From: Raillietiella orientalis
Lineage: Eukaryota
Reading direction: 5' to 3'
NCBI GenBank assembly: GCA_036172245.1
Contig: JAYWIR010000015.1
Span: forward strand, 4,030,001 to 4,094,000
Length of the DNA stretch: 64,000 bases
The translations under genes were made by a program, and so were the position numbers. The notes under the pieces were generated by a model, which saw only the letters and a program-made list of their open reading frames with translations, was not told the DNA's origin and ran no database searches. Shown piece after piece: positions 18,347 through 62,494 of the stretch; positions within the stretch are counted from its first letter, which is position 1; each line of letters begins with the position of its first letter.

Positions 18347-18557
18347 GTTTCTTGGATCAGAAGTCGAGATTCTAGCCTTCTTACCATTGGCACTTACACT
18401 TTCACTAGTGAAAAAAGATTTCAAACGTTTTACAATGAAGACTTCGGAAGCTGGACGCTGCAAATCAAGTACACAAAACCTTCGGACCTGGGAACATACG
18501 AATGTCAAATATCTTCTGAACCTAAACTAAGTCATTTCGTGTACCTTAATGTAAGAG
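18347..18557 (+). CDS. Dpr-like gene, exon completing Ig1
   Basis: Acceptor ttgtcttttag|, donor G|gtcagt (phase 1). Encodes VSWIRSRDSSLLTIGTYTFTSEKRFQ...WTLQIKYTKPSDLGTYECQISSEPKLSHFVYLNVR, with the Dpr hallmarks VSWIR, WTLQI and DxGxYECQ. In frame with the previous exon. Confidence 0.95.
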
Positions 18558-19949
18558 GTCAGTTTCATTGTCATGCTCTTTAAGAAGTGTGCTTCTGAAT
18601 GATGCTTTAAACATTGATCCCTTTCTGGATTTGATCAAAGCCAGGTTCAATAATAACTGCTCAAATGAGCACAATGAGTACTAAGACTCAAGTAAAGTGG
18701 AGATATAGGGTCAGTTTTTGTTTCTAGCTGGACAAATAAGAAAACGATGTGACAGGCTGCAATCAGAGTAGATTCCTTAGCAACAAACTGGTTCTTTCTT
18801 CAATAGTCATGCTCTTTGTTTTTTTCGAAACATTACTTGAATCACTAATATGAACTACTGATACCAGAGAAGCGGTACTATGGATACTCATTTCATAGCA
18901 TCTAAGATTGCAGAGAGAGAATTCTAGAAAGGTACAATTACTAAAGTTCCCAATGTTTGTCAATTTCCCTTTATTAATCCATCAATTGGATGACTAATTT
19001 GTTATCAAAATCAAAGCGACTGAAAACAAGCAACTCACAAAAGTTGTAAGAGTCACATTTTCATCCTTTCAAGGTAAAGATCATTTTGTTCGCTCACGTC
19101 TTCGCCTGCTGATTTCTTCTTGTAGTCACAGCGAAGTAAATCTTCGCGGTCATTTGTTTCCCGGGCAGCAGGATGAAATACTCCAGAGTAAGCGTCGAGC
19201 TAAACTTCTCTTTACTGATGATTCTCAAGCAAAATCCTGCTTTCCGATAGGGACGAAATTGCTTTCCTTGACCTTTACTAAAAGGATTTCGAGCATGAGG
19301 TAAGATTGTCTGGGAAACTTTGCTTTTGAGGTCGCAATAGTCAGGATCAAACTTTCTGGAGATTCTCAAAGGCCATTTCCTGAAGAAGCAAGATTAAATC
19401 TGAAACTGGAGAAAATTAAGTCTTAAATGACTTCTTCTGAAAACATAGGAGGAAGGAAATACTCTGAGGCCAAGTCAATAACTTTTCAAAGGTTTCAGTA
19501 TCTATGACGGATACATTCTTTATTCTTCTTTCGTAATTTCTTCGAGCATGACCTTTTTTTATGAGGAAAGAAAAAACAGTCCGAAGTCTCATATTGAAGA
19601 AACATCGCCTCCTTAGGTACAGACCTCCTCTCTGAACTTCAAACGGAAGAAGGAAAGCAGATCTTAGAATAGACGTTGGACTGGTGGATGCTTGGAAGTC
19701 GATCGTGCATCTAAAAGAAGAATCAACTTTGCAATCGCAAGCCGCCTAATTATGTTAGCTGTTCTTCCTTTTCTAATGACTTTACTCTTTCGCCTTTGAG
19801 CTGTTGACTCATTAGAGCAGCTCCCGGAAGCCTATGAACAGTTTCCAGGAAAAATGAAGGCCTAATGGACACTTCATTTGATGTGTTGCCAAAAGGAGGA
19901 ATTTCGAAATGCGTGTTACTCTCCCTTAACTTTCGTGTGTTCCTCAGCT

Positions 19950-28934: not shown

Positions 28935-29562
28935 ACAGGACCCTTTTCGCCTATAGATCAACGACGTGAATTAAAATTAGGGCTGGAAAAAAAAAAGGGG
29001 GCGGGGATGCTCCTCTCACTCTACTAAAAGTTCCATTACCATCCATTCGGTTATGTCCTTGTCCATGGATAAGTGAATTGAGATCTTTCGAAACTTCAAT
29101 CACAAGAAACCAAAGATTTCAAGTGCAGCTTGATCCTGGAGCAAATAACTTCACTGGAAGGAAGTGGGACATCGAGCGAAGCGGTAACTCTTGAGCGCTT
29201 TGCACGATTCGGGGAGTTCGAGTAGTGATGGAAGATGTGAAGCTGTGCTGGGTCTCCACGACAGAGCAGCCTTGATGGTTCGAGCAAATCAGTTTCGTTT
29301 TACTTCCTCCAAGAAAATTCGGCATTCGGACTAGGACCAGCAAAGAATCCTGAGATGCAACAACTAGCTCGACGTCCGTGCTTCCATCTCGACAAAGAAC
29401 GCCGTTGAAACTCAATACTGTTCTTAGATGCTGTGCCGAGATCTCAGTGTCCGGTGAACTTCTCAAGTATCGGTGACTCGAGGCGTATCCGCTCACTTGC
29501 TGCTCCACAGATCACCCTCTCCAAAAAGCAACTCCTTCCCCGTTAACGTGCGTCTTTTCCAG

Positions 29563-29856
29563 AGACTGAAATCAAAATGCTTGGTGGAACAGACATCTAC
29601 GTTAAGGCGAACAGCACCATAGCAATAAAGTGCTCGATCGGTCAGTACCCTTCTTACATCTTCTGGCACAAGAATGGAAATCGTATAATGGATTCCACAC
29701 CCTTATCAAGGACGATAATTGAGACAAAAGCTACAGACAACAACAAGTACATCAGTCAGCTGACCCTTCTGAATACGCAGAAAGAAGACGCTGGTAACTA
29801 CAGCTGCAGCATCTCTCACGAGTTCTCTGACTCAACAATGATCCATGTTCTTGAAG
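29563..29856 (+). CDS. Dpr-like gene, Ig2 exon
   Basis: Acceptor cgtcttttccag|, donor GAA G|gtttgt (phase 1/1). Encodes ETEIKMLGGTDIYVKANSTIAIKC...IFWHKNG...SQLTLLNTQKEDAGNYSC...IHVLE. Confidence 0.95.
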
Positions 29857-32800
29857 GTTTGTTTCCCAATGATTGCATCTTGCATTTGATAGTACCTTTG
29901 CAGTCCTCTTGAGAATTAAATGATGCAGCATTCTTTCATGCTCTGCTCTTTAATGAACATGTGAATCGCGCTTGTACCAGTTTCTTGAGGATGTTTCGTC
30001 CCTCCTTTCAAACAACTTCATTTTCTTAAGAAAAGGTTCATCTTGATGATTATTTGAAACCTTGGGCTCTTTTTTCTTAAGCAGTAGTAGTGTGATACAT
30101 ATTTTTAATGTTTTTATGATCTGAAAGATCGATAGAGGTCCTCGTGCTTTCTGCTAATGGAGTTGCCATCGTCTCCAGAGAATCAACGTTGAAGAAATAT
30201 CGAATTCATTTCTGCTTAATCTACGAGTGCGGCTTCGAGGATACCTTCCCATTATGAGCCCCGAGCAGTGTGTGCTTACGAATGAAACAGGCTGCATCCG
30301 CTATCAGAAATCTTCTATCACTCCACTACTCTGTTTCAAGCTCGATCAAGTAGTGCGGTCCGTGGTTCCTTTCACAAGGATGGGAATGGGTTCTCAATGT
30401 CGTGGAAGTAGCGCAGTGCACGAGTCCAAATGGGAGGAAAATTGGAGGGAAATTTGACGTGCACAGATCACCTACAAGGACGGAATAAGCATAAGGACGA
30501 AGAGAGCTCTCTTTTCTGTCTGGTTCTACCACATATCGAAGAGAGTTTTGTGGCAAAACCACATTTGCAGTAGTTTTCAGTCGCCTAGGGAATCGGTCTG
30601 CTCGAGATCCTTTCACTTTTCCACGAGCGGCATTTCACTGACCCACGGAATCGCTGTCTTCACTGCTCGATGACTTGTGAAGGAACACTCTCGTAGGCCG
30701 ATTCCGCGCGCTGAAAGACTCTTGAGTGGCTCATCATGCATGTTTGGGCACCGCACTGATCGCACCGACGAAGCGTTGTCTCTGACTTCCTCTGGCACCG
30801 TTTCCTATGAAACTGTCTCATTTTCTGTTTGCTTAACCGGCCATACAGTCATCGGCAGGGGAACGACAACCACACACCTCTTTTCCTCTCACGTACAGCA
30901 GTGCGCCAATGGAAGGAACGGGGAAGGTCCTTCCTCGTCATTCTCGTTCAAAAGGATTGCTTCGCGATTTGAAGGAACTCGTGTTCTCCTGAAAGAAGAT
31001 TACAACTTGGGGATTACAGCCTCCGCATTTTCCCCGGAAACAGCGCTTCAAAGCCGTAAAAACGCTGATGCCAGGTTGTCCATAAAAGAGGTAGCTGCTT
31101 CCTAACAAGAGCTGTAGTGATGTGAGTTATAGGGTTTGGTAAGAGGAAGAATTCAGTAGAATTTTCGTGTTATTTCTTTTGTAAGTAAAGTTGGGTTACG
31201 AAGGCCTGTTTAATTCGTTTGTGAGATTCGTGTTGATTACCGAATAAAAGAAAAAAGACGGAAGAGATAGAAGGAGTATTTTAAGTGACTCTCTGCCCGA
31301 AAACGCCGAGCTTCCCACTTTAAGATTCCAGGAGGACCAGTCTCCAGCTGGAAGAATGGATAGGTTGTGCTCACAATACGAGCAGGAGTAAAAGGGTCTC
31401 ATATGCTTCATCATCTTTTTTTACTCCTCTGAGGGAAGGCAACTTGGTCGGTGCAATAGCGAACGCATTACAAAATGACACTGTAGTTAGGGTTAAGGGC
31501 CTTCGGTGGCTTGGCCATGAATGTTAACTAGCAAGGAGATAAGTGAATGGATTCCATGGATTCTGCTGATAGTATCTTTAAATTCGCAGCCGCATTGCCA
31601 GTTTCTAGCGAAGGAGCTTCAGAAGTCATGATTCAGTCTGTTCGCCTTGCGTTGGAGAAGTAAAATTCTGAGAACGTAGGATCACTTATCATGATGCAAG
31701 AAAGCGAAGCAATTTTCTCTACAATTCTAAAAGTGATTTGATGGACGACGAAGATGAGAAAGTTGCACTACTTATCCTTGTAGATGTCAGAGGAATTTCT
31801 GTCACTGAGGTCACAGATGAAATCAATGGACAAACTTCAGAAAACGAAAAAGATGTCAACATTCAGGAATGCAATGCAAATGAAGTACAGCAGATCAAAA
31901 TGCTGATACATTTGACTGCAAGCTGCAGAAAACTCGAAAGTTCCACGGAGTTGTTTAGCACGGCGTTTGCTTGTTGCTGAATCTCGACGGCTTCCTAGAG
32001 ATGATCAAATTCATCAGACACGTGAGAAGCCATGTATGAGGCCACAAAGGACCTGACAAAGGACCTGTTGTTGCCTTGCTTGAGACTTGTATTTAAAAGG
32101 AGTCGAGATCCAGAGGAAAAGATTCTCCCATCATTCGAGTGCCGTCGGAAGTGGCTTCCTGGAGGAGAGTGAGAACGTAAAGCTGACGGCCTCCATGTTC
32201 AGGAAGATAAGGACATGTACTTGGACGAATAAAAGGGTGGAAGCTTCCTGGGAGAGCGAGGTAGACGGAGATGGACAGGGAGCGTCTCCCTTAGGTTATG
32301 AGTGTTTCGTGACCACTCTCCATTTGTCTTTTTGTTTTGCAAGGATGTTTCATTATTTACGTGACACGCTGTCAGTCCGAAACGCGTCCAGTGGGCAACG
32401 CATTCAGGTCAAGTGCTCTCAACTTCAATGACATCACGAAGCGGTCTTGAAAGACACGTTCATCAGGGGAAAATTGCATTGCGTGATTTCAGCATCAGAG
32501 TGTTCCCGATCGATTGCAGCGTCGTTTCTATCCGGGAGAGAAATGCCCTGCATTACACGTGGGGACAGTGTTGTTAAATAAGCGCGAAGAACACAGAGAC
32601 ACCGATTGGGGCACTCCTGAATGTGCGAGTATGCTTCAGAGCCTCTAGCACCTCCGCAGAGGACAAGGTTCCAGATGCACAACCGTAACTGAACGGAGGA
32701 GTTTCCATTGCTGTGATGCTAGTTAATACCTTGACCTCTTCAGCTTCCGAAAAAGGACCGAAAGCACAAGGGCACAGTCATTTTGTTCTCTTCCTGGTGA

Positions 32801-40777: not shown

Positions 40778-41032
40778 TGCCCGCGTCGGAGACTGTGGTT
40801 ACGGTTTCCGCGCGTGGTACCATGCGTCGCGGGTCCGAATTCTTCGAAAGAAATCGACGCAGTGCGTCGTGGGTTCGAGTTCCTCCTGCAAGATGACGCT
40901 GGTTGTCCTACATTCATTCGGCTGCAACACTGGTAGTGTTTTAAACCGGACGCTTCCGATGAGTGGCCGGAAATGTGGGAGTCGACCCTCGGGTCCTTCC
41001 AGGAATCAAGGAGTGGGGACTTCCCCCTACTG
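40778..41032 (+). mobile_element. SINE-like family copy (head and start of body)
   Basis: Collinear with 50031-50300: gcccgcgt ... gggttcgagttcctcctgcaagatgacgctggtt ... ggtccttccaggaatcaaggag. Confidence 0.8.
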
Positions 41033-41839
41033 GTGTTGGTACGGGAAAAGCTTTCTTAACACTGATCTGAAATGTGAAGAAGGAAGATGAGTTCCTACTT
41101 TTGAGGCGATCTAAAGCTGTCAATGATTCAGTTACGCCATTTTGTTCATCTTTTATCCAGACAGGACTTTGAACTGTCTTTAAAGCGTTATCTGAAGGAG
41201 AGCACACGAGACACTGTCGCTCAATCAGGGTACTGAGAGGCGGAAGCTGGCAAGGAAAGTCGTCGACTCGTAAAACTTAGGCAAATTCTCACAAAGCGAC
41301 TTGTTTTGAGATCCATAACACCCCGAGGAATTTTTTTTCCAAGGATGAATCAGCAATTAAAGTTCTGCTATTAAAAGTTGGACGACCCTGGATTCAAATT
41401 CCCTCTTTCCAGTAACCCGATACAAACATCGAGTGTCTCTCATACACGGAAACCGGATACATCTTTTTCATCCTTTGATGCACGATCTCGTCTTTTTTTT
41501 TCTTTTTTTTTTCCTGTAGCTCTGTATTCTCTTAAGTCCTTGGATGAGAGGCTCTTATATTTACGGTTAAGCAAGAAATCTCTAGAGGTCACAAATCAAT
41601 GAAGAAGTTCCATTTCGGGGAGATGGAAAGTCATCATTGCTTTGCGACTGTCACAGTTACTCAGGCAGTGTGGCTGTGACGAGAGAAGACGCCACAGTCC
41701 ACTCCCGGAATCTTTGCCCAGCCCGAAATTCTTGCCAGCACTCTTTGACTGTGGAATGTCTTTCCTCCCTCACGTACTTTTCTCAACAGTCGTCTTATCG
41801 AGCATCTGAAGATGATTTTCCGAATTTTTTTCTTCTTAG

Positions 41840-42840: not shown

Positions 42841-43240
42841 GGATGCCTCCACTGGACTGGTCGGGATTGGAGGTTGACCCTCCTAGGTCATTTCGGAAAT
42901 CAAGGAGGAGCCCTTCCAAGTTTCTCCTTCGGTTGGGAGGATGGAACCGTTACCATGGAGCTGAGGTGGAAACAGGGGACTGTTCCTTCCGGAGGAGAAA
43001 TTCCAGGAGCACACCCTTTCCGGGTCCCCCTTGAGGAAGAAAGGAGCAATGGATCCCTCCAGTTGGCCACGTGCGTCCCTCTGGAGAGAAGAAGGAAGAG
43101 GTTCCCTTCGGAGACGAAACCGGATGGCCCCGTTGACCGTTGGTTGGAAAGGGATCGGGAGCTGAACCTCCGGGGTTCTTCCAGGAATCTCGGAGCCAGC
43201 TGGTTCCCTTCGGGTTACCCCCTCCGGTTGGGAAAAGTGT
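42841..43240 (+). mobile_element. SINE-like family copy lacking the head (body plus minisatellite tail)
   Basis: ggatgcctcc...gggattggaggttgacc...aatcaaggag followed by ggttcccttcgg-type units, as in 50220-50740. Confidence 0.7.
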
Positions 43241-44277: not shown

Positions 44278-44430
44278 CTCCGCCCCCGTTGGTGGCCCTG
44301 TGGCTGCGGTCTTCGCGCATGATACCAAGAGTGAAGAATCGACGCCAGAGAAATGGGTGCGTAGTGGGTCTCGAGTTCTCCCACGCAAGATAACGCTGGC
44401 TGGCCTGCATTCGGACGCAGTGCACTGGTT
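44278..44430 (+). mobile_element. SINE-like head abutting an antisense LINE
   Basis: gaatcgacgcc...gtgggtctcgagttctcc...caagataacgctggctgg...cactggt, homologous to the other heads. Confidence 0.75.
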
Positions 44431-44432
44431 GA

Positions 44433-45215
44433 CACCCGGTCACGCCGGGGCGCTTATTTATGAAAAATAAATGCCTGTGGCAGGGCATTTGATCCTGCCA
44501 CGTTACTTATAACTACGAGAAGGAACCTGCCAGGAACTGGCACGCAGGCCACAGGAGTTCGCCCTGGCAGCACAAGGAAAAGGGAGGTAAACAAAAAGAA
44601 CAAAACTAAAACCAAAAACATACAGTCAGAAAATAGAAGGGGGGTTCGGGAAAGGATCCCTGTGTGCTGGAGGGTGTCTTCTGCATCCTTGTAAGGATGC
44701 CGGCAAGTTCCTGTTCCAAGACTCCCAGATGGGGCCATCTTGACGCCATCCTCATGAAGAGGACAACAAAATAGATGGTATCCCTGTCGTACTGGCCTCC
44801 TCGGGAGTTGCTCCATGCAGCCACGATCCCGCCGTGAGGGCACAAAAGTGCTGCTAGGGATGCGACCGGCGTGAGGGAGTCGCGCTGGAACAGGCGACAC
44901 TCAATGGAACCCACGACGTTGCCGCCGTGGGTTCCAAAGGTCGCGGCAAGCATTTCCAAAGGGGTCGGAGAACAACACAGTCCATTAGAAGGTGCGGTAA
45001 GGATTCCCGCTCCCCGCACCTTGCACAGTTTGGGTCCACCCCTCACCCCCGTGTCTAATGATTCCGGCGAGCGTTGCACGGGAAGTCCCAGTGCAGCAGC
45101 ATCAATGCCGACTTCTGCCACTTCGAGAGAAGGATGCGGGTGTTCGTGAGCATTGCAGACCACTGAAGGTCTTTTTCCGGAATACCCAGTAGCACGCCCC
45201 AGCTCAAAAGTCCAA
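44433..45215 (-). mobile_element. Tx1/L1-clade LINE family A, 3' fragment (zf-RVT plus 3' UTR)
   Basis: LLHWDFPCNARRNH*TRG*GVDPNCARCGERESLPHLLMDC is the L1-type C-terminal zinc knuckle. T-rich 3' UTR with AATAAA. Near-identical to 55206-55985. Confidence 0.88.
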
Positions 45216-46589
45216 GTCGGAGCAACAACCAGCTTGTCAAACTCACTCCCGGTCAGCTAGCAAAGTGGAGGCCAGAGGCTGTCAGCGAGTAGCTGCATGC
45301 TGGATTTTGTTCCGAGGAGCTTGTTTGGGTGCGCTGTGATGTTTGCTTAATGACGCTTGGTACTGTCCAGTGGAAGCTGGCTTCTGGAAATTTGCTGCCA
45401 GGGGTTGAGGGAGTGAAGTTTTCGACGAAGAACTGCGTGGATCTTCCTCCTGCCTCAAATCAGCGCAATTGGACGGAAACGGAATCAGTTAGCTAAACGT
45501 CATGGATTTAGTTCCGGATAGCCGCGAGAATGATTTCATCTTCACAAATGTGCCTGGAACATACAGCAAGGAAACGCAACTGAGCTGAGAGAGGAGCAGG
45601 CGGAATGAAAGTGTGGACCGAGGCTCACTTGTGTGGTGGACTTGATCATATTCTGAAAGAGAACATCAGTATTTACTTAACATCCAAGATATTTGCAACT
45701 CAAAAGCAAACGACAAATCGAAATTAAATGATTACTTACTGAAAATTTGGGTTTTGTTTCGGTGACTCTCGGGAAAGAATGAGATTTTCGTTTTCAATCT
45801 CGAAATGAAAAGCTGTAAAATCACGGAATTTGAATTTTTATTTTATTTTGAAAATCACGAAGTGATAGGAGTGTAAATATCATGTTAAGAACTATAAATG
45901 AGGTAACCATAGTTGGCGCAGCAGAAAGGGGTGCAACACTCTTAGAAGTCCAAAGCTGTCTACTATTCTAAGCGATATCAGGGGATGAAGTCTAAGGCTA
46001 CTCTCAAAACGTATGAGGCACCAATTAGGAGGCAGCGTGGCCAACGTCATGTTTTCTTGAGAGGGTTACATTGTATCCAGTGTCCTTAGAGGACGCGATG
46101 TGGAAGAAGAAGAACGCAAAAGAAGAATGAGGTTGAGAATGTTTTTCTATTGCTTTCAATTCTTAAAAATATATTTCCTTCACATTTCCAAAAAGTTGCT
46201 CGAGATAATGTGAGACTGACGACCGGGAAAAAAAAACACAACAGCTAATGCATTCCAAATAACCTGGCGGTTTTCACAAGCCAGCCAGCACACACTTTTA
46301 AGCAGGCCTTACACTTTCGAAAAATAAAAGTCAAGTTTGACACCAGGGTTATTTGTCGTATTTAAATGGAAATTTTAGCTAAGTGTAATCTTGATTTTTA
46401 TGAATTTTCGTTAATTAAATGTTCTTATTCTTTCCGTTCCCAACTACCCCAATTTTTCCTTCAGTGAGATGGCCAGTCATCTTCAACATCTCTACTTCAC
46501 CCGTTACAATTTTTCAGCACTTTCCCCTGCATCTTCTGAGGGATCTCGATGTTTGGGGAGAGTTCGATGTAGATTGCGAGCATCCTTTG

Positions 46590-50030: not shown

Positions 50031-50745
50031 AGGTGGCCCGCGTTGGAGACCACGTGGCTGATGAGATCTCTGCGCATGGCACCACGCGTCGCGGGTTCGA
50101 ATACTCGGAAAGAATCGACGCCGGGAGATGAGGATGCGTCGTGGATTCGAGTTCCTCCCGCAAGATGACGCTGGTTGGCTCCACATTCATTTGGGTGCGG
50201 CACCGGTAGCGGTCCAAACCGGATGCCCCCGGTGAGTGGCCGGGATTAGAAATCGACCTCCGGGTCCTTCCAGGAAACAAAATCAAGGAGTGCGGTTCCC
50301 TTCAGGGTTCTCTTCCGTTTGTGCAAAGGAGCCATCCCTCCTCCCTCGTGGATGAATCCTCCGTCTCGACCATGAAGCTGGTGAATTAATGTGCTCCAGT
50401 GTACAAAGGAGCGCGCTGCTCCCTTCGGGGAGCGCCCTTCAGAGAAAATTTGGAAGCGTCCCTTTGGAGTTCTCTTCAGAGGGGTAAGCAGGAACGGTTC
50501 CCTTGCGGGTTCCCTCCGGACAAGAAATTCCTACTAGCGAATCCTTTCCGAGTTCCCTTCGGAGAAGAAAAAATGGAGCGGATCCCTTCGAAGGTCCTTC
50601 CCCAGGCGGAAAAGGATAAGGAAGGAGGTTCCCCCTCGGGGATCCCTCCGCAGGCGTGAGAGGAACGGATTTCCTTCTCCGAAGCCCTTCCTGGATTCAT
50701 AGGGTGGTCCCCTCCAGGAGAACCCCCTATCTTGGAGAAAATGAG
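50031..50745 (+). mobile_element. Full-length copy of the tRNA-related SINE-like family (~710 bp)
   Basis: Two B-box-like motifs (gggttcgaatac ~50093, ggattcgagttcc ~50143), a body, then about 8-10 degenerate ~40-bp units ending cccctatcttggagaaa. Collinear end to end with 52960-53677. Confidence 0.82.
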
Positions 50746-51914
50746 ACCGTGTTGTAACATCAGTGAGCAGAATACTCTTCTTGGAAGCATCACTGGATCA
50801 TACGGAATGACCTCGGGCTCCAGAGGTTCCCAATGGCATCTTTTGTCTGTTTAAGTCACTGCATCCTCGTGCTTAAAGGGTACTTTTGTCCGCTTCGCGA
50901 CGGATTTCGCACGGAGTACGCGAACCGGAAAGTGAGCAGTTCCAAGAGTTCCAGATAGCTTTGGGCTATCCTAGACTTCCTGCAGTTCCCAGTTCAGAAT
51001 CACCATTGCTCTTCTAGCACGCGATGGACTTCATCGCGCAAGAGACCACCGCACGGTTTTCGATGACGGCTCTCTACTGCATCCCGTTGTTTTTTTCTCC
51101 CTGTTTCCAGAAGCTGGGAATATCACCTTCAGAGTTCCTGCTGAGAGGCTTGTAGGCCGGCACGAGTGGATTTCTAGGAAAGGAAGCTGCTCTGGAGCCT
51201 GCTCTTCAGTGGAATCGGTCCTCACTGGGAAAGAGGGAAAAAATCGGACATGATGAAATAATCAGAAAAGAATTCGCTTTTCCTGAAAGTGCCATTCATC
51301 ACGAAGATCACAGGAAGTGCTCAGTGAACACTGCGATTCTAGACAGCAGTGTTCTCTCAACAGAACAGGCTTCCAGTTCCTCTGCAGGAGACCTCGTGAT
51401 CCATTCTACTCCCTAGTGAAGACAGCTCTTGGAAATCTCGGATTCCTATTTTCGCTTCTGAGATAATCTTGGATTTTATCTATCCATCATTGCATTTGGA
51501 CTCCTACCGCTCACTTCTAAAAAAGGATAATCTCACAAAAAGGATAATCTCACTTTATTGGGGTGCTTGTCTGTGACAGATGATGCTGCGAACAAGACGT
51601 CTCATTTTTTTTTTCTCGGATGAGAGGCATCTCTTCCCGTGATTCCAGCCGTGGAAACAGTTGCAGAGAGCAGTGGATGTGGATTCTTGTGGGAGTTTCT
51701 TTTTGTTTGGTTCTCTACCAGAAAGGATTCAATAGATCTCAGTGAGGAGGGGGCTGCCCTGCTGAGCACAACACCCCGATTCGTACGTTGGTTGTCTACA
51801 GCGCGCCCACGCTCACCATGCATTTTCTTTTTATTTGGTTCGCTAAGTACTCAGAAAACGCTTTGCATTCCTCATCGCAGAGCTGTGCCTGTCGGTTGCT
51901 ACAGCACCACGATG

Positions 51915-52959: not shown

Positions 52960-53677
52960 TAATTCTTCAAGATAGGGGTTACCCCAGGAGGGATCCGCTC
53001 TATGAATCCAGGAAGGACTCGGAGTCCGTTGCTCTCACTCCCGGGGAGGGATCCCCGGAAATGGAGATCACCTCCACCATGGTTTTCTCCGAAGAGAAAT
53101 CCAGAAGAGAATCTCCTTCCTTATTCTCTCCGGAGGACCCCCGGAGGGTCTGCTCCATTCTTTCTTCTCGGAACCCGAAAAGGATCCGATCCTGGAATTT
53201 CTTCTCCGGAGGGATCCCCCCGCAAGGGATCTGCTCCTGTTTTTACTCCTCTGAAGAGAACCCCGAAGGGATGCTTCCGAAATTCAGAAGGGCACAGCTT
53301 CCCCGAAGAAATCGGCTCGCTTCTCTGCACTCTCTCTGGAGAGGTGGTGGCGACACACCTACTCCATCAGTACGACGCGGAGGGGTCCTCCCCTGAATAG
53401 GAGGTACGCTTCTTCACAACCGAAAGGGAACTCTCACTCTTTGATTCCTGGAAGGACCCAGAGGTCTACTCCCATTTGTCCCGGCCCTCATCGGAGGCAT
53501 CCGGTTTCAACCGCTACCAATGCCGCACCCTGATGAATCAAAGTAGGCGTCATCTTGTGGGGTGAACTCTGAACCCACGACGCAGTGAGTCGATTCCTTT
53601 AGGAGTATTCGAACCCACGACATATGGTGGCACGCGCAAAGACCACCGTAAGCACACGGCCCCCTACGCGGGCACCT
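52960..53677 (-). mobile_element. Full-length SINE-like copy, reverse orientation
   Basis: The reverse complement starts aggtgcccgcgt, has gtgggttcgaatactc and the same ordered tail units, and ends cccctatcttgaagaa. Confidence 0.82.
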
Positions 53678-55064: not shown

Positions 55065-55203
55065 ACGCATTGGGGACCGTGTCAAGCGTTGTAGGTTTGA
55101 ATCCCCACGTGGAGGATCGACGCAGAGAGATGGGTGAGCCGTAGGTTTTGAGTCCCTCCCGCAGGACGACGCTGGTTGGTCGGCTTCGGGTGCGACACTG
55201 GTT
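55065..55203 (+). mobile_element. SINE-like head (left half of a LINE-interrupted copy)
   Basis: ggtttgaatcccc...gatcgacgc...gagtccctcccgcaggacgacgctggttgg...gggtgcgacactggt. Confidence 0.75.
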
Positions 55204-55205
55204 GA

Positions 55206-56280
55206 CATCCGGTCACGCCGAGGAGTTTATTTATACAAAATAAATGCCTGTGGCAGGGCGTTTAATCCTGCCACGTTACTTATAACTACGAGAAGGAACC
55301 TGCCGGGAACTGGCACGCAGGTCACAGGAGTTCGCCCTGGCAGCATAGGAGAAAGGGAGGTAAACAAAAAGAACAAAACTAAAACCAAAAACATACAGTC
55401 AGAAAATAGAAGGGGGGTTCGGGAAAGGATCCCTGTGTGCTGGAGGGTGTCTTCTGCATCCTTGTAAGGATGCCGGCAAGTTCCTGTTCCAAGACTCCCA
55501 GATGGGGCCATCTTGACGCCATCCTCATGAAGAGGACAACAAAATAGATGGTATCCCTGTCGTACTGGCCTTCTCTGGAGTTGCTCCATGCAGCCACGAT
55601 CCCACCGTGTGGGCACCAAAGTGCTGCTAGGGATGCGACCGGCGTGAGGGAGTCGCGCTGGAACAGGCGCTGTCCAACGTCTCTGGCGTTGCCGCCGTGG
55701 GTTCCAAAGGTCGCGGCAAGCATTTCCAAAGGGGTCGGAGGACAACACAGTCCATTAGAAGGTGCAGTAAGGATTCCCGCTCCCCGCACCTTGCACAGTT
55801 TGGGTCCACCCCTCACCCCCGTGTCTAATGATTCCGGCGAGCGTTGCACGGGAAGTCCCAGTGCAGCAGCATCAATGCCGACTTCTGCCACTTCGAGGGA
55901 AGGATGCGGGTGTTCGTGAATATTGCAGACCACTGAAGGTCTTTTTCCGGAATACCCAGTAGCACGCTTCAGCGCAAAAGTCCAGGAGGTCGAGCAATCG
56001 GGGTCGCAGCGTCGGTGAGCTGGCCCGTCGCCCACTCGCCCAGTCCTTTCCTCCCTTCCGGAGATTTCCACAGGAACCTCCCATCTAGCCGTAAGGCTAC
56101 TGTCCATGTGTTCCCTGAGGGAGGACAGGGAGGAAAGGGTGGCAAGGAATGTCCTTCTTGCCCATGCACTATTCACGGGATCTTCCAGGATCTCCCGATC
56201 ATGCAGTTGTTGTTACGCGCGTACAGGAAACGTCGCACTTGTTCCGCGCTTGGCTCCTGCATCCTCGCCAACGTGCAAAC
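55206..56280 (-). mobile_element. Tx1/L1-clade LINE family A, 5'-truncated copy
   Basis: zf-RVT CARCGERESLLHLLMDC. Upstream peptides WARRTFLATL and RWEVPVEISG align with family B (WARNTSIAATL, RWEVSCVIAG). Confidence 0.88.
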
Positions 56281-56505
56281 GGGTAGGGCGCTGGTGAAAG
56301 CCGGAAACCCGGGTGCCCTCCTTGACTCTCTGGGATTGGAAATTGACTTTCCGGATTCCTTCCAGGAATCAAGGAGCACTTCGGGGTTCCCCTCCGGTTG
56401 TGAAAATGGAGCTGCCCTCCCTTCAGGGGTCAATCCTCCATCGCGTACCGTGGAGCTGGTTGATGCCCTCTTCCGGGAAGTTACCTCTGCAGAGTGTGAG
56501 AAGCG
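56281..56505 (+). mobile_element. SINE-like body (right half of the interrupted copy)
   Basis: gggtagggcgctggt...aaacccgggtgccc...gggattggaaattgac...ccttccaggaatcaaggag...aatcctcc...gagctggt is collinear with 50193-50385. Confidence 0.75.
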
Positions 56506-60787: not shown

Positions 60788-61950
60788 CACCCGGTCACGC
60801 CGGAGCGTTTATTTCAAAAAAATATCTGCAAGAAAAAGTCATATAAAATAGAAAAGAACATCTTCCTTCGTAGTGACTCCACATCACCATCACGAAAGGA
60901 AATGCCTCGGAGGAGCTGCTTCTCGTGAACTTCTCCCCGATAAGGTCCCCACAGAAGGAGTGGGGGAAGGGGTAAACAAAAACAAAAAAAACACAAAAGT
61001 TCAGTTTAAAAGTTTGTTTGTTTTTTTCTGAGGGTGGGGAGAATGGATTACAAATTTCTTCTTGAAGTCCTCAGCATCCTTTGGAGGATGGTGGCAACAT
61101 CCCCCAGAGGATGCTGGCATCCTCTGGCAGAGATGTGTTCATCGTGTCGCCTTCCTCATGAAGGAGCAGACAAATGAGATGACCTCATCATTCGGATGGC
61201 CTCTTTCGGTGTGGCTTCTTGGTGCCACGATCCCACGAAGGCAGCATAGCGCTGCAAGGGAAGAAGCTGCAGACGACATCGAATCGCGCGTGGAGAGGTC
61301 ATCACATGACCTCTCTGCCGTTGCCCATCGGTAGTGGGAGAACCGCAGCGAAGCGTTCCCAAACACTCCGGAGGGCAACAAAATATAACAGGTGCGGGAA
61401 GGTTTCCCGTTCCCCACACCTGGAGCAGAATGGGACTACACTCCCCCCTGTCCGGTGGTGGACTCGTGCGTTGCATGGGATCGCCCAGTGCAACAACTGC
61501 AATGTCGATTCCTGCCACTTCAGGGGAAGAGTGGAGCTGTCCACAAACACTGAGGGAATTTCCGCTTCTTCAGGAGGAATATCCAAGAGGAAGAGGAATA
61601 CCCAGCGACGATTTCCTTCCTGGAGGGCGACGGGGGGGGCATGCATCAGCCAGTTGATGCGCCTTCCAGCATTCCAGCTGTTCCTTTTTCCCGCGATCAC
61701 GCAGGATACTTCCCATCTCTCAAGGCCATCGCTACTTCCACTTTGTTGGATCGTGTTGAGCGTCGCTGCAATTGAAGTGTTCCGCGCCCAAGTGGTCTCC
61801 CTGGGGCAGCCCATGATTTCCTGCAACGAACAGCGAGCGTTGCTCGAGGATCGCAGTGCCTCGATTCCTTTCAAAACCCAGTCGGAGGGGCAGCTTTGCA
61901 GTCTCCGACAGCAGATGTTTGGCTTGGAGATGCACCTCGACATCCTGGAT
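60788..61950 (-). mobile_element. Tx1/L1-clade LINE family B, 3' fragment
   Basis: ORF 61302-61943 encodes KWQESTLQLLHWAIPCNARVHH...CSRCGERETFPHLL. Homologous to but clearly diverged from family A, with the same terminal 20-mer. Confidence 0.85.
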
Positions 61951-62059
61951 GTACAAACAAGTAAAAAGTATCGATCACTCTTGCTTTCCTTCTCCCTTCT
62001 TTAGATGATTGATGAACTTGCAGCATCCCCATGTCATTTCACTGTCGACCGTTTCATCA

Positions 62060-62322
62060 CGGGGGCGGCCGTGTGGCTGTGGTCTCCACTCGTGGCACCA
62101 AGCGATGCGGTTTCGAATCCACACTTGGAGGGTCGACGCCGAGAATGGGAGTACGTCGTGGGTTTCGAGTCGCTCCCCCGCAGGACGACGCTGGTCTGTC
62201 TGTAGACTTGGGGGGCAGCACTAGTGGAATGAGAAAACCTTCGTATGACCCTGTTGACTGTCCGGGACTGTCCTTCCGAAAATCAGGAAGCCGGTTTTCC
62301 TCGAGGGTCCCCTCCGGTTGCA
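62060..62322 (+). mobile_element. SINE-like copy (head plus partial body)
   Basis: gtggcacc...ggtttcgaatcc...gtcgacgcc...gtgggtttcgagtc...caggacgacgctggt...tccttccgaaaatcagg...cccctccggttg. Confidence 0.75.
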
Positions 62323-62494
62323 TGAACAAATTTTCTTTCGAAGAATATTTTCTGTAGATGAAGCTCGGAAATACCCTGAAGAGTTTTCTCCTGAGTGGGC
62401 GCAGGCTTCATTAATCTTAAACTTAGCACTTAATGAGAATCACCAGAAGAGAAAGAAAATAACTACGTGGAAAACATATGGCAAGACATTCATT

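Follow-up and report, generated by a model that had tools for sequence, protein, structure and literature searches.

Two antisense LINE insertions at the same nucleotide of a dispersed SINE in Raillietiella orientalis hint at targeted integration

Tx1 elements are placed inside the L1 group as target-specific members in the part of the source used here (PMC3747384). In the sections of a second source on which we draw, many elements of the Tx1 clade are target-specific: Tx1L of Xenopus laevis inserts into Tx1D, a piggyBac-type DNA transposon, U2 snRNA genes are the target of Keno, and microsatellites are the targets of Kibi and Koshi (PMC4494074). The same sections report that crocodilian Tx1-Mar families prefer Mariner-N4_AMi, that Tx1-8_Crp and Tx1-4_AMi target LTR retrotransposons and Tx1-9_AMi targets Harbinger, and that a 16-nt target-site duplication (TSD) is inferred for co-targeting SINEU-3 copies (PMC4494074). 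On targets, PMC5753468 and PMC10294476 have nothing to add in the sections consulted. LINEs with a specific target offer natural cases of insertion that is RNA-templated, programmable and directed to safe sites, and each new LINE target helps to show how APE-type endonucleases gain specificity. Dewa is directed to tRNA spacers and Mutsu to 5S rRNA. Dictyostelium TRE elements are non-LTR elements found near tRNA genes, and their integration depends on position relative to the gene, not on one nucleotide; the targeting of retrotransposons to Pol III genes is reportedly covered by a review.

Here we describe a stretch of 64,000 nucleotides of Raillietiella orientalis DNA (the window), in which a LINE interrupts a SINE. 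The SINE is about 300 bp long, dispersed and multicopy, with four full and two interrupted or partial copies in 64 kb. The four uninterrupted copies, which served as the source of the SINE profile, are S1 (50037-50350, plus strand; nhmmer E 5.6e-86 and alignment), S2 (40780-41044, plus), S3 (62060-62344, plus) and S6 (53401-53672, minus), the last three identified by profile match and alignment. Their pairwise identity is 70-80%, and each has an empty target site. One partial copy consists of a head only (head A, 44284-44429, plus strand), with an nhmmer match at 44284-44431 to profile positions 2-170 (E 6.1e-22) that was placed by alignment. The other is divided into a head (head B, 55065-55202, plus strand; nhmmer 55083-55205, profile 44-171, E 1.5e-21), the start of which was pushed out to about 55065 by MAFFT alignment, and a body (56281-56470, plus strand; nhmmer 56280-56419, profile 153-294, E 3e-18) that aligns with S1 up to about 56465. 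The insertion site discussed below is covered by six SINE copies in 64 kb and is uninterrupted in four of them, which marks it as an ordinary position in the SINE rather than a feature of the whole family. Body units without a head also occur, in tandem or isolated, at 42841-43236 (43113-43236 and 42841-42943), 52964-53296 (minus strand) and 50582-50746. They start at about profile position 173-182, and the junction lies at most about 2 nt from this head/body boundary; given these headless units, the SINE looks modular, composed of a head and a unit of about 110 nt.

The SINE had been called tRNA-related from the letters alone, and the predictions support this label weakly. With a relaxed threshold, ARAGORN returned a 72-nt cloverleaf of poor quality, spanning consensus positions 4-75, along with other overlapping calls, and a GGTTCGAAT motif in the head resembles a B box. 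On the other hand, ARAGORN at default settings gave 0 tRNA genes, and Rfam gave no tRNA match at the gathering threshold or at E<=10. Both LINE-bearing heads lack part of the promoter-like region, and the first plus-strand run of at least four T lies 740 nt into the LINE. A small-RNA gene hidden in the SINE was considered as the true target and rejected, as no copy had an Rfam match at E<=10. We found no SINE 3' tail shared with this LINE; within the window, LINE similarity is confined to the three LINE copies.

All three LINE copies lie on the minus strand. Copy B (55203-56280, 1078 bp) contains a degraded ORF2 C-terminus and the 3' UTR. Copy A (44430-45226, 797 bp) is 5'-truncated more than B and matches it (55203-55990) at 746 of 788 aligned bases, or 94.7%. 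Copy C (60788-61958, possibly reaching about 62050) is a diverged relative, about 66% identical. LINE B runs on to 56280, aligning there with C; beyond the 5' end of A the sequence is neither LINE nor SINE. The 5' end of C (61958) lies about 10-100 nt from the start of S3 (62060), and the two are in opposite orientations. The LINE 3' end is common to A, B and C, and the TGA on the plus strand that adjoins the SINE head (55203-55205 and 44430-44432) is common to A and B and absent from C. The 3' end of C carries a tail of 8 nt that is rich in A, and its flank there is not SINE; no poly(A) tail is kept at the 3' end of A or B. Two of the three copies have an AATAAA signal at a distance of 20-23 nt from the 3' end, 23 nt in the case of B (55226-55231, minus strand), and A has AATAAG. 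The octamer ACCGGATG, found at the LINE 3' end on the LINE sense strand (55207-55214), also occurs in S1 (50226-50233) and in S6, where it is found on the sense strand of the SINE, some 12 nt past the insertion point in the downstream direction; its presence in both LINE and SINE could be due to chance or be linked to target recognition.

The differences between A and B are distributed unevenly along the LINE: 14 in bases 1-160, 5 in 161-430, 17 in 468-484 and 3 in 490-700. This pattern suggests gene conversion or recombination among copies, which blurs dating. Along with the position of C outside the SINE, the missing SINE body at A, the mismatched duplication at B and the coding lesions common to A and B, all described below, it suggests that the insertions are older than the identity of 94.7% implies; these points limit dating and leave the same-site observation in place. 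At 44903-44936 LINE A carries a perfect hairpin with a stem of about 11 bp, first flagged by an Rfam match at chance level, and B and C carry unrelated bases there; the patch of 17 differences looks like a templated quasi-palindrome correction.

The sequence-only reading had proposed a candidate Tx1-like LINE, and what is left of ORF2 is compatible with such a candidate clade. A CCHC knuckle of the form C-x2-C-x7-H-x4-C was identified by translation in the ORF2 C-terminus of B (55747-55797, minus strand); it is present in A and B, and its last Cys is lost in C. Pfam zf-RVT matched the LINE B frame with E 0.0071 and 17.4 bits, below the cut-off of 27.5, and a feature search of the ESM Atlas placed 19 of its 30 hits in eukaryotic clusters with zf-RVT in 29-43% of members, which serves as a lead only. 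The knuckle and the weak zf-RVT match point to an ORF2 of L1/Tx1 type, the CCHC being non-diagnostic as it also occurs in L1. RT and EN domains are absent from all three copies, and the window lacks the 5' part of the element. The open reading frames scanned (150 of the 299 of at least 75 aa, those of the 35-64 kb half in part, plus 30 of at least 60 aa) contained no RVT or endonuclease family. A word-indexed protein search with a 277-aa frame of B, partly in the wrong frame, returned no relatives. The 232-aa frame of C gave 0 HMMER hits at E<=0.001 against 1.84 billion representatives and nothing in Pfam at E<=0.1. A frameshift and two stops precede the knuckle in both A and B, the two in-frame stops lying just upstream of it within 55810-55839, and C is open there. 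These common lesions point to the descent of A and B from a single defective template or to an exchange of sequence between them.

At the copy B locus, a single SINE copy (55065-56470) is interrupted by 1078 bp of 5'-truncated, minus-strand LINE. The sequence-only reading had described this split, and the split stands; the boundary is shifted slightly, with the head ending at 55202 and the LINE taken to start at 55203, the TGA being assigned to it provisionally. The reading had also noted that the SINE resumes at 56281 with a 15-mer matching the left junction at 11 positions, and this holds as stated: the left 15-mer, GGGTGCGACACTGGT (55188-55202, plus strand), and the right one, GGGTAGGGCGCTGGT (56281-56295, plus strand), are identical at 11 of 15 positions, and on the SINE profile head B and body B overlap by about 15-18 positions, in agreement. 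Against the SINE majority consensus, the left 15-mer, a putative TSD copy, scores 14/15 and the right one 12/15. Together with the 5' truncation and the defined 3' end, the 15-nt overlap is a hallmark of target-primed reverse transcription (TPRT), and the arrangement supports an antisense insertion of LINE B into a SINE with a duplication-like overlap. The 4 mismatches in 15 between the two halves exceed the expectation from the A/B LINE divergence (Poisson P(>=4) 0.007-0.07 for lambda 0.75-1.5). CpG decay was rejected as the cause of divergence in the heads and the duplication, as the CpG observed/expected ratio is 0.82 in the window, which amounts to little CpG depletion, and about 1.0 in the heads. 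Alternatively, recombination between LINE copies may have joined in B a head and a body that belonged to different SINE copies. For copy A (797 bp) no target-site duplication was found.

The same junction between a SINE head and the LINE 3' end recurs at 44429|44430 in a second, diverged SINE head, as had been noted before. The junction 25-mer CACTGGTTGACAYCCGGTCACGCCG occurs twice in the window (44423-44447 and 55196-55220), with 0.00 occurrences expected in 100 shuffles. Both heads stop in the same SINE alignment column, at profile position 170/171, and at the junction both LINE copies are antisense to the SINE. The two heads are only about 70-76% identical, compared with 94.7% for the LINE parts. 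In the shared head block the A-B identity is 0.70, and the nearest copy to B is S3 (0.77) and the nearest to A is S2 (0.77); the 73 informative head columns include 5 with a shared-derived state, compared with 8 that are private to A and 10 to B. The deletions differ as well: the one in head A takes out the first B-box-like segment, and the one in head B removes about 27 nt of the sequence upstream of that segment. No homology was found between the A and B loci to the left of the SINE starts or to the right of the LINE ends. Divergence changes abruptly at the junction, where the last 100 head columns hold 33 differences and the first 160 bases of the LINE hold 14 (Fisher p 1.7e-6), and the 5' truncation points differ (about 797 bp in A and about 1078 bp in B). 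The unlike heads, the different deletions and the unrelated flanks indicate that the LINE sits in two distinct SINE copies, at one and the same nucleotide and antisense in both. That all SINE-flanked copies might trace to one duplicated locus had been raised along with the original proposal; within the window, and for two junctions, this evidence favours two events.

Of the three LINE 3' ends in the window, two lie at one SINE nucleotide, and that of C lies outside the SINE. If the 64 kb offer six sites and either orientation is allowed, simple arithmetic gives a chance of about 5e-5 per insertion and about 7e-9 for two of three, and the coincidence of junctions in two independent SINE copies, one with an overlap, is well beyond chance. 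On the 5' side of copy A no SINE body follows, so that for A the 3' junction alone counts. As regards the 3' flanks, the earlier account of A and B within the SINE is retained, and it is extended by the copy at 60788 (C), which is additional to that account and has a non-SINE flank. The central proposal, that the SINE is a specific target of the LINE, gains from the identical junction in two SINE copies and is tempered by the position of C outside the SINE, the missing body at A and the imperfect duplication at B. Exact scans for a LINE 20-mer gave 0 matches in metagenome and viral contigs, and those for a SINE 26-mer gave 0 matches in metagenome and genome contigs.

The shared junction could be due to either repeated insertion or the copying of a single event at the DNA level, in which one ancestral LINE-in-SINE insertion was later multiplied by segmental duplication, gene conversion or ectopic recombination, and no target specificity of the LINE is needed. 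Such copying would be in line with the two junctions lying 10.8 kb apart on one contig in direct orientation, with the frameshift and stops that A and B have in common, and with an A/B identity that peaks in the LINE interior and drops toward the junction, as in conversion tracts; the 4/15 mismatches of the duplication correspond to the level between SINE copies, which fits a head and a body from different copies. However, the heads are not sisters, each being closer to another copy than to its counterpart (0.77 with S3 for B and with S2 for A, against 0.70 between them) and having few shared-derived columns relative to private ones (5 versus 18), their deletions differ, and outside the SINE there is no homology on either side. 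The 40 head bases at the junction contain 13 differences, the highest of any 40-base bin, although conversion would equalise them, and flanks of 70-80% identity are poor conversion substrates. We consider DNA-level copying quite unlikely. A looser preference in place of the recognition of a long SINE sequence, whether for a short nick motif, for a DNA structure or through tethering by Pol III factors at tRNA-like promoters as in the Dictyostelium TRE elements, with the abundant SINE simply supplying most of the sites, is unlikely too, if a little less so. The SINE is dense, with six site-covering copies in 64 kb, the B-box-like motif is about 100 nt upstream of the site, and LINE C shows that relatives land elsewhere, all of which a loose preference would accommodate; it does not readily explain why both insertions share the exact nucleotide and orientation. 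Factor-tethered integration usually scatters over several bases. The loss of the first B-box-like segment from head A, and that of about 27 nt farther upstream from head B, may also speak against such a preference.

A third possibility is that the junctions are chimeras, formed when a SINE-head RNA ending at position 171, a module boundary, primed or was joined to LINE cDNA. The start of the body-only units at about profile 173-182, with the boundary within about 2 nt of the junction, speaks for such an origin. Yet the right-hand part of B takes up the SINE 15-18 positions short of the boundary, so that the end of the head is present a second time, a mark of insertion into an unbroken SINE. 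Furthermore, divergence is much greater in the heads than in the LINE ends, whereas a chimera formed in one event would have a single age, and the antisense orientation is unlike that of the template-switch chimeras described in the part of the source used here (PMC4494074); a chimeric origin therefore appears very improbable. Two further candidates were rejected. Transduction of the SINE from one source at the 3' end would give heads as alike as the LINE parts, and these are about 70-76% identical versus 94.7%. A composite of SINE and LINE that was retrotransposed under the SINE promoter fails on the same count, the heads being too diverged, and a T5 run occurs 740 nt into the antisense LINE.

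The reading we lean towards, with a confidence slightly above even, is that of two independent TPRT insertions of a LINE subfamily with an L1/Tx1-type knuckle, at the same SINE nucleotide and in antisense orientation, by sequence-specific or strongly preferential targeting. From the coincidence of the junctions we infer that the choice of target lies with the LINE machinery and is sequence-specific or strongly preferential; two cases in one 64-kb window hint at targeted insertion and are no proof of it. In the proposed mechanism, the target, a dispersed SINE, would be older than the LINE insertions. The LINE endonuclease would nick the SINE sense strand after ...GGCACTGGT, and the nicked 3' end would prime cDNA synthesis at the 3' end of the LINE RNA (...GTGACCGGRTG[TCA]), with no A-tail kept. 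A cut of the second strand about 15 nt upstream would then give rise to the 15-nt duplication of B, a length that would be compatible with staggered nicks of the APE type, and 5' truncation would end A and B at different points. The broader interpretation, in which a LINE lineage has an abundant SINE as its dedicated landing site, inserting antisense at one nucleotide at the head/body boundary and using it as a 'parasite of a parasite' safe haven in which parasite and host element are both retroposons, is plausible at somewhat less than an even chance.

If the pattern is true genome-wide, a retroposon would join the published Tx1 targets, which comprise DNA transposons, LTR elements, RNA genes and microsatellites. 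On the broader interpretation, units combining a SINE promoter with an antisense LINE would arise in their thousands, a possible feed for small-RNA silencing of the LINE. For repeat annotation, SINE-LINE-SINE composites are open to being mistaken for new families. Elsewhere in the window, an open frame at 29547-29909 (plus strand) matches Pfam ig with E 5e-12 and another at 18347-18580 (plus strand) matches V-set with E 1.3e-4, below the cut-off; the two are probably exons of an Ig-superfamily gene. The segment 56000-60000 has a G+C content of 55-56% and, on either strand, numerous open frames of 100-190 aa that overlap one another, and the 10 frames scanned there contained no Pfam family at E<=0.1, the single match listed having E 0.18.

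How the locus relates to known systems can be set out case by case. A search of full-text literature, with most subscription journals and Repbase Reports outside its coverage, found no report of a LINE targeting a SINE. The Dictyostelium TRE elements resemble the present case in that a non-LTR element is tied to Pol III-type promoter sequences; here the insertion is fixed to one nucleotide. Keno, Kibi and Koshi are sequence-specific and belong to the same candidate clade, but in the sections of the source used here their targets are multicopy RNA genes or simple repeats and not a retroposon (PMC4494074). Tx1L likewise uses a single site within a different family of dispersed repeats, and an ORF2 C-terminus of the L1-superfamily type with CCHC is consistent with the comparison; as far as the same sections describe it, its target is a DNA transposon, whereas here it is a SINE, with two insertions and a candidate clade (PMC4494074). 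The crocodilian Tx1 families are similar in their preferential use of a fixed position in an old, abundant transposon, in their antisense orientation to the target and in the length of the duplication, 16 nt for the SINEU-3 copies compared with about 15 nt here (PMC4494074, in part). They differ in that many copies and an RT phylogeny stand behind them, compared with two of three copies and no RT in the window, and in that their partner SINEUs are poly(A)-tailed, whereas no A-tail is kept at the junction described here (PMC4494074, same sections). As Tx1 LINEs targeting other transposon families have already been published, a SINE would be a new target for such elements, and not a new principle.
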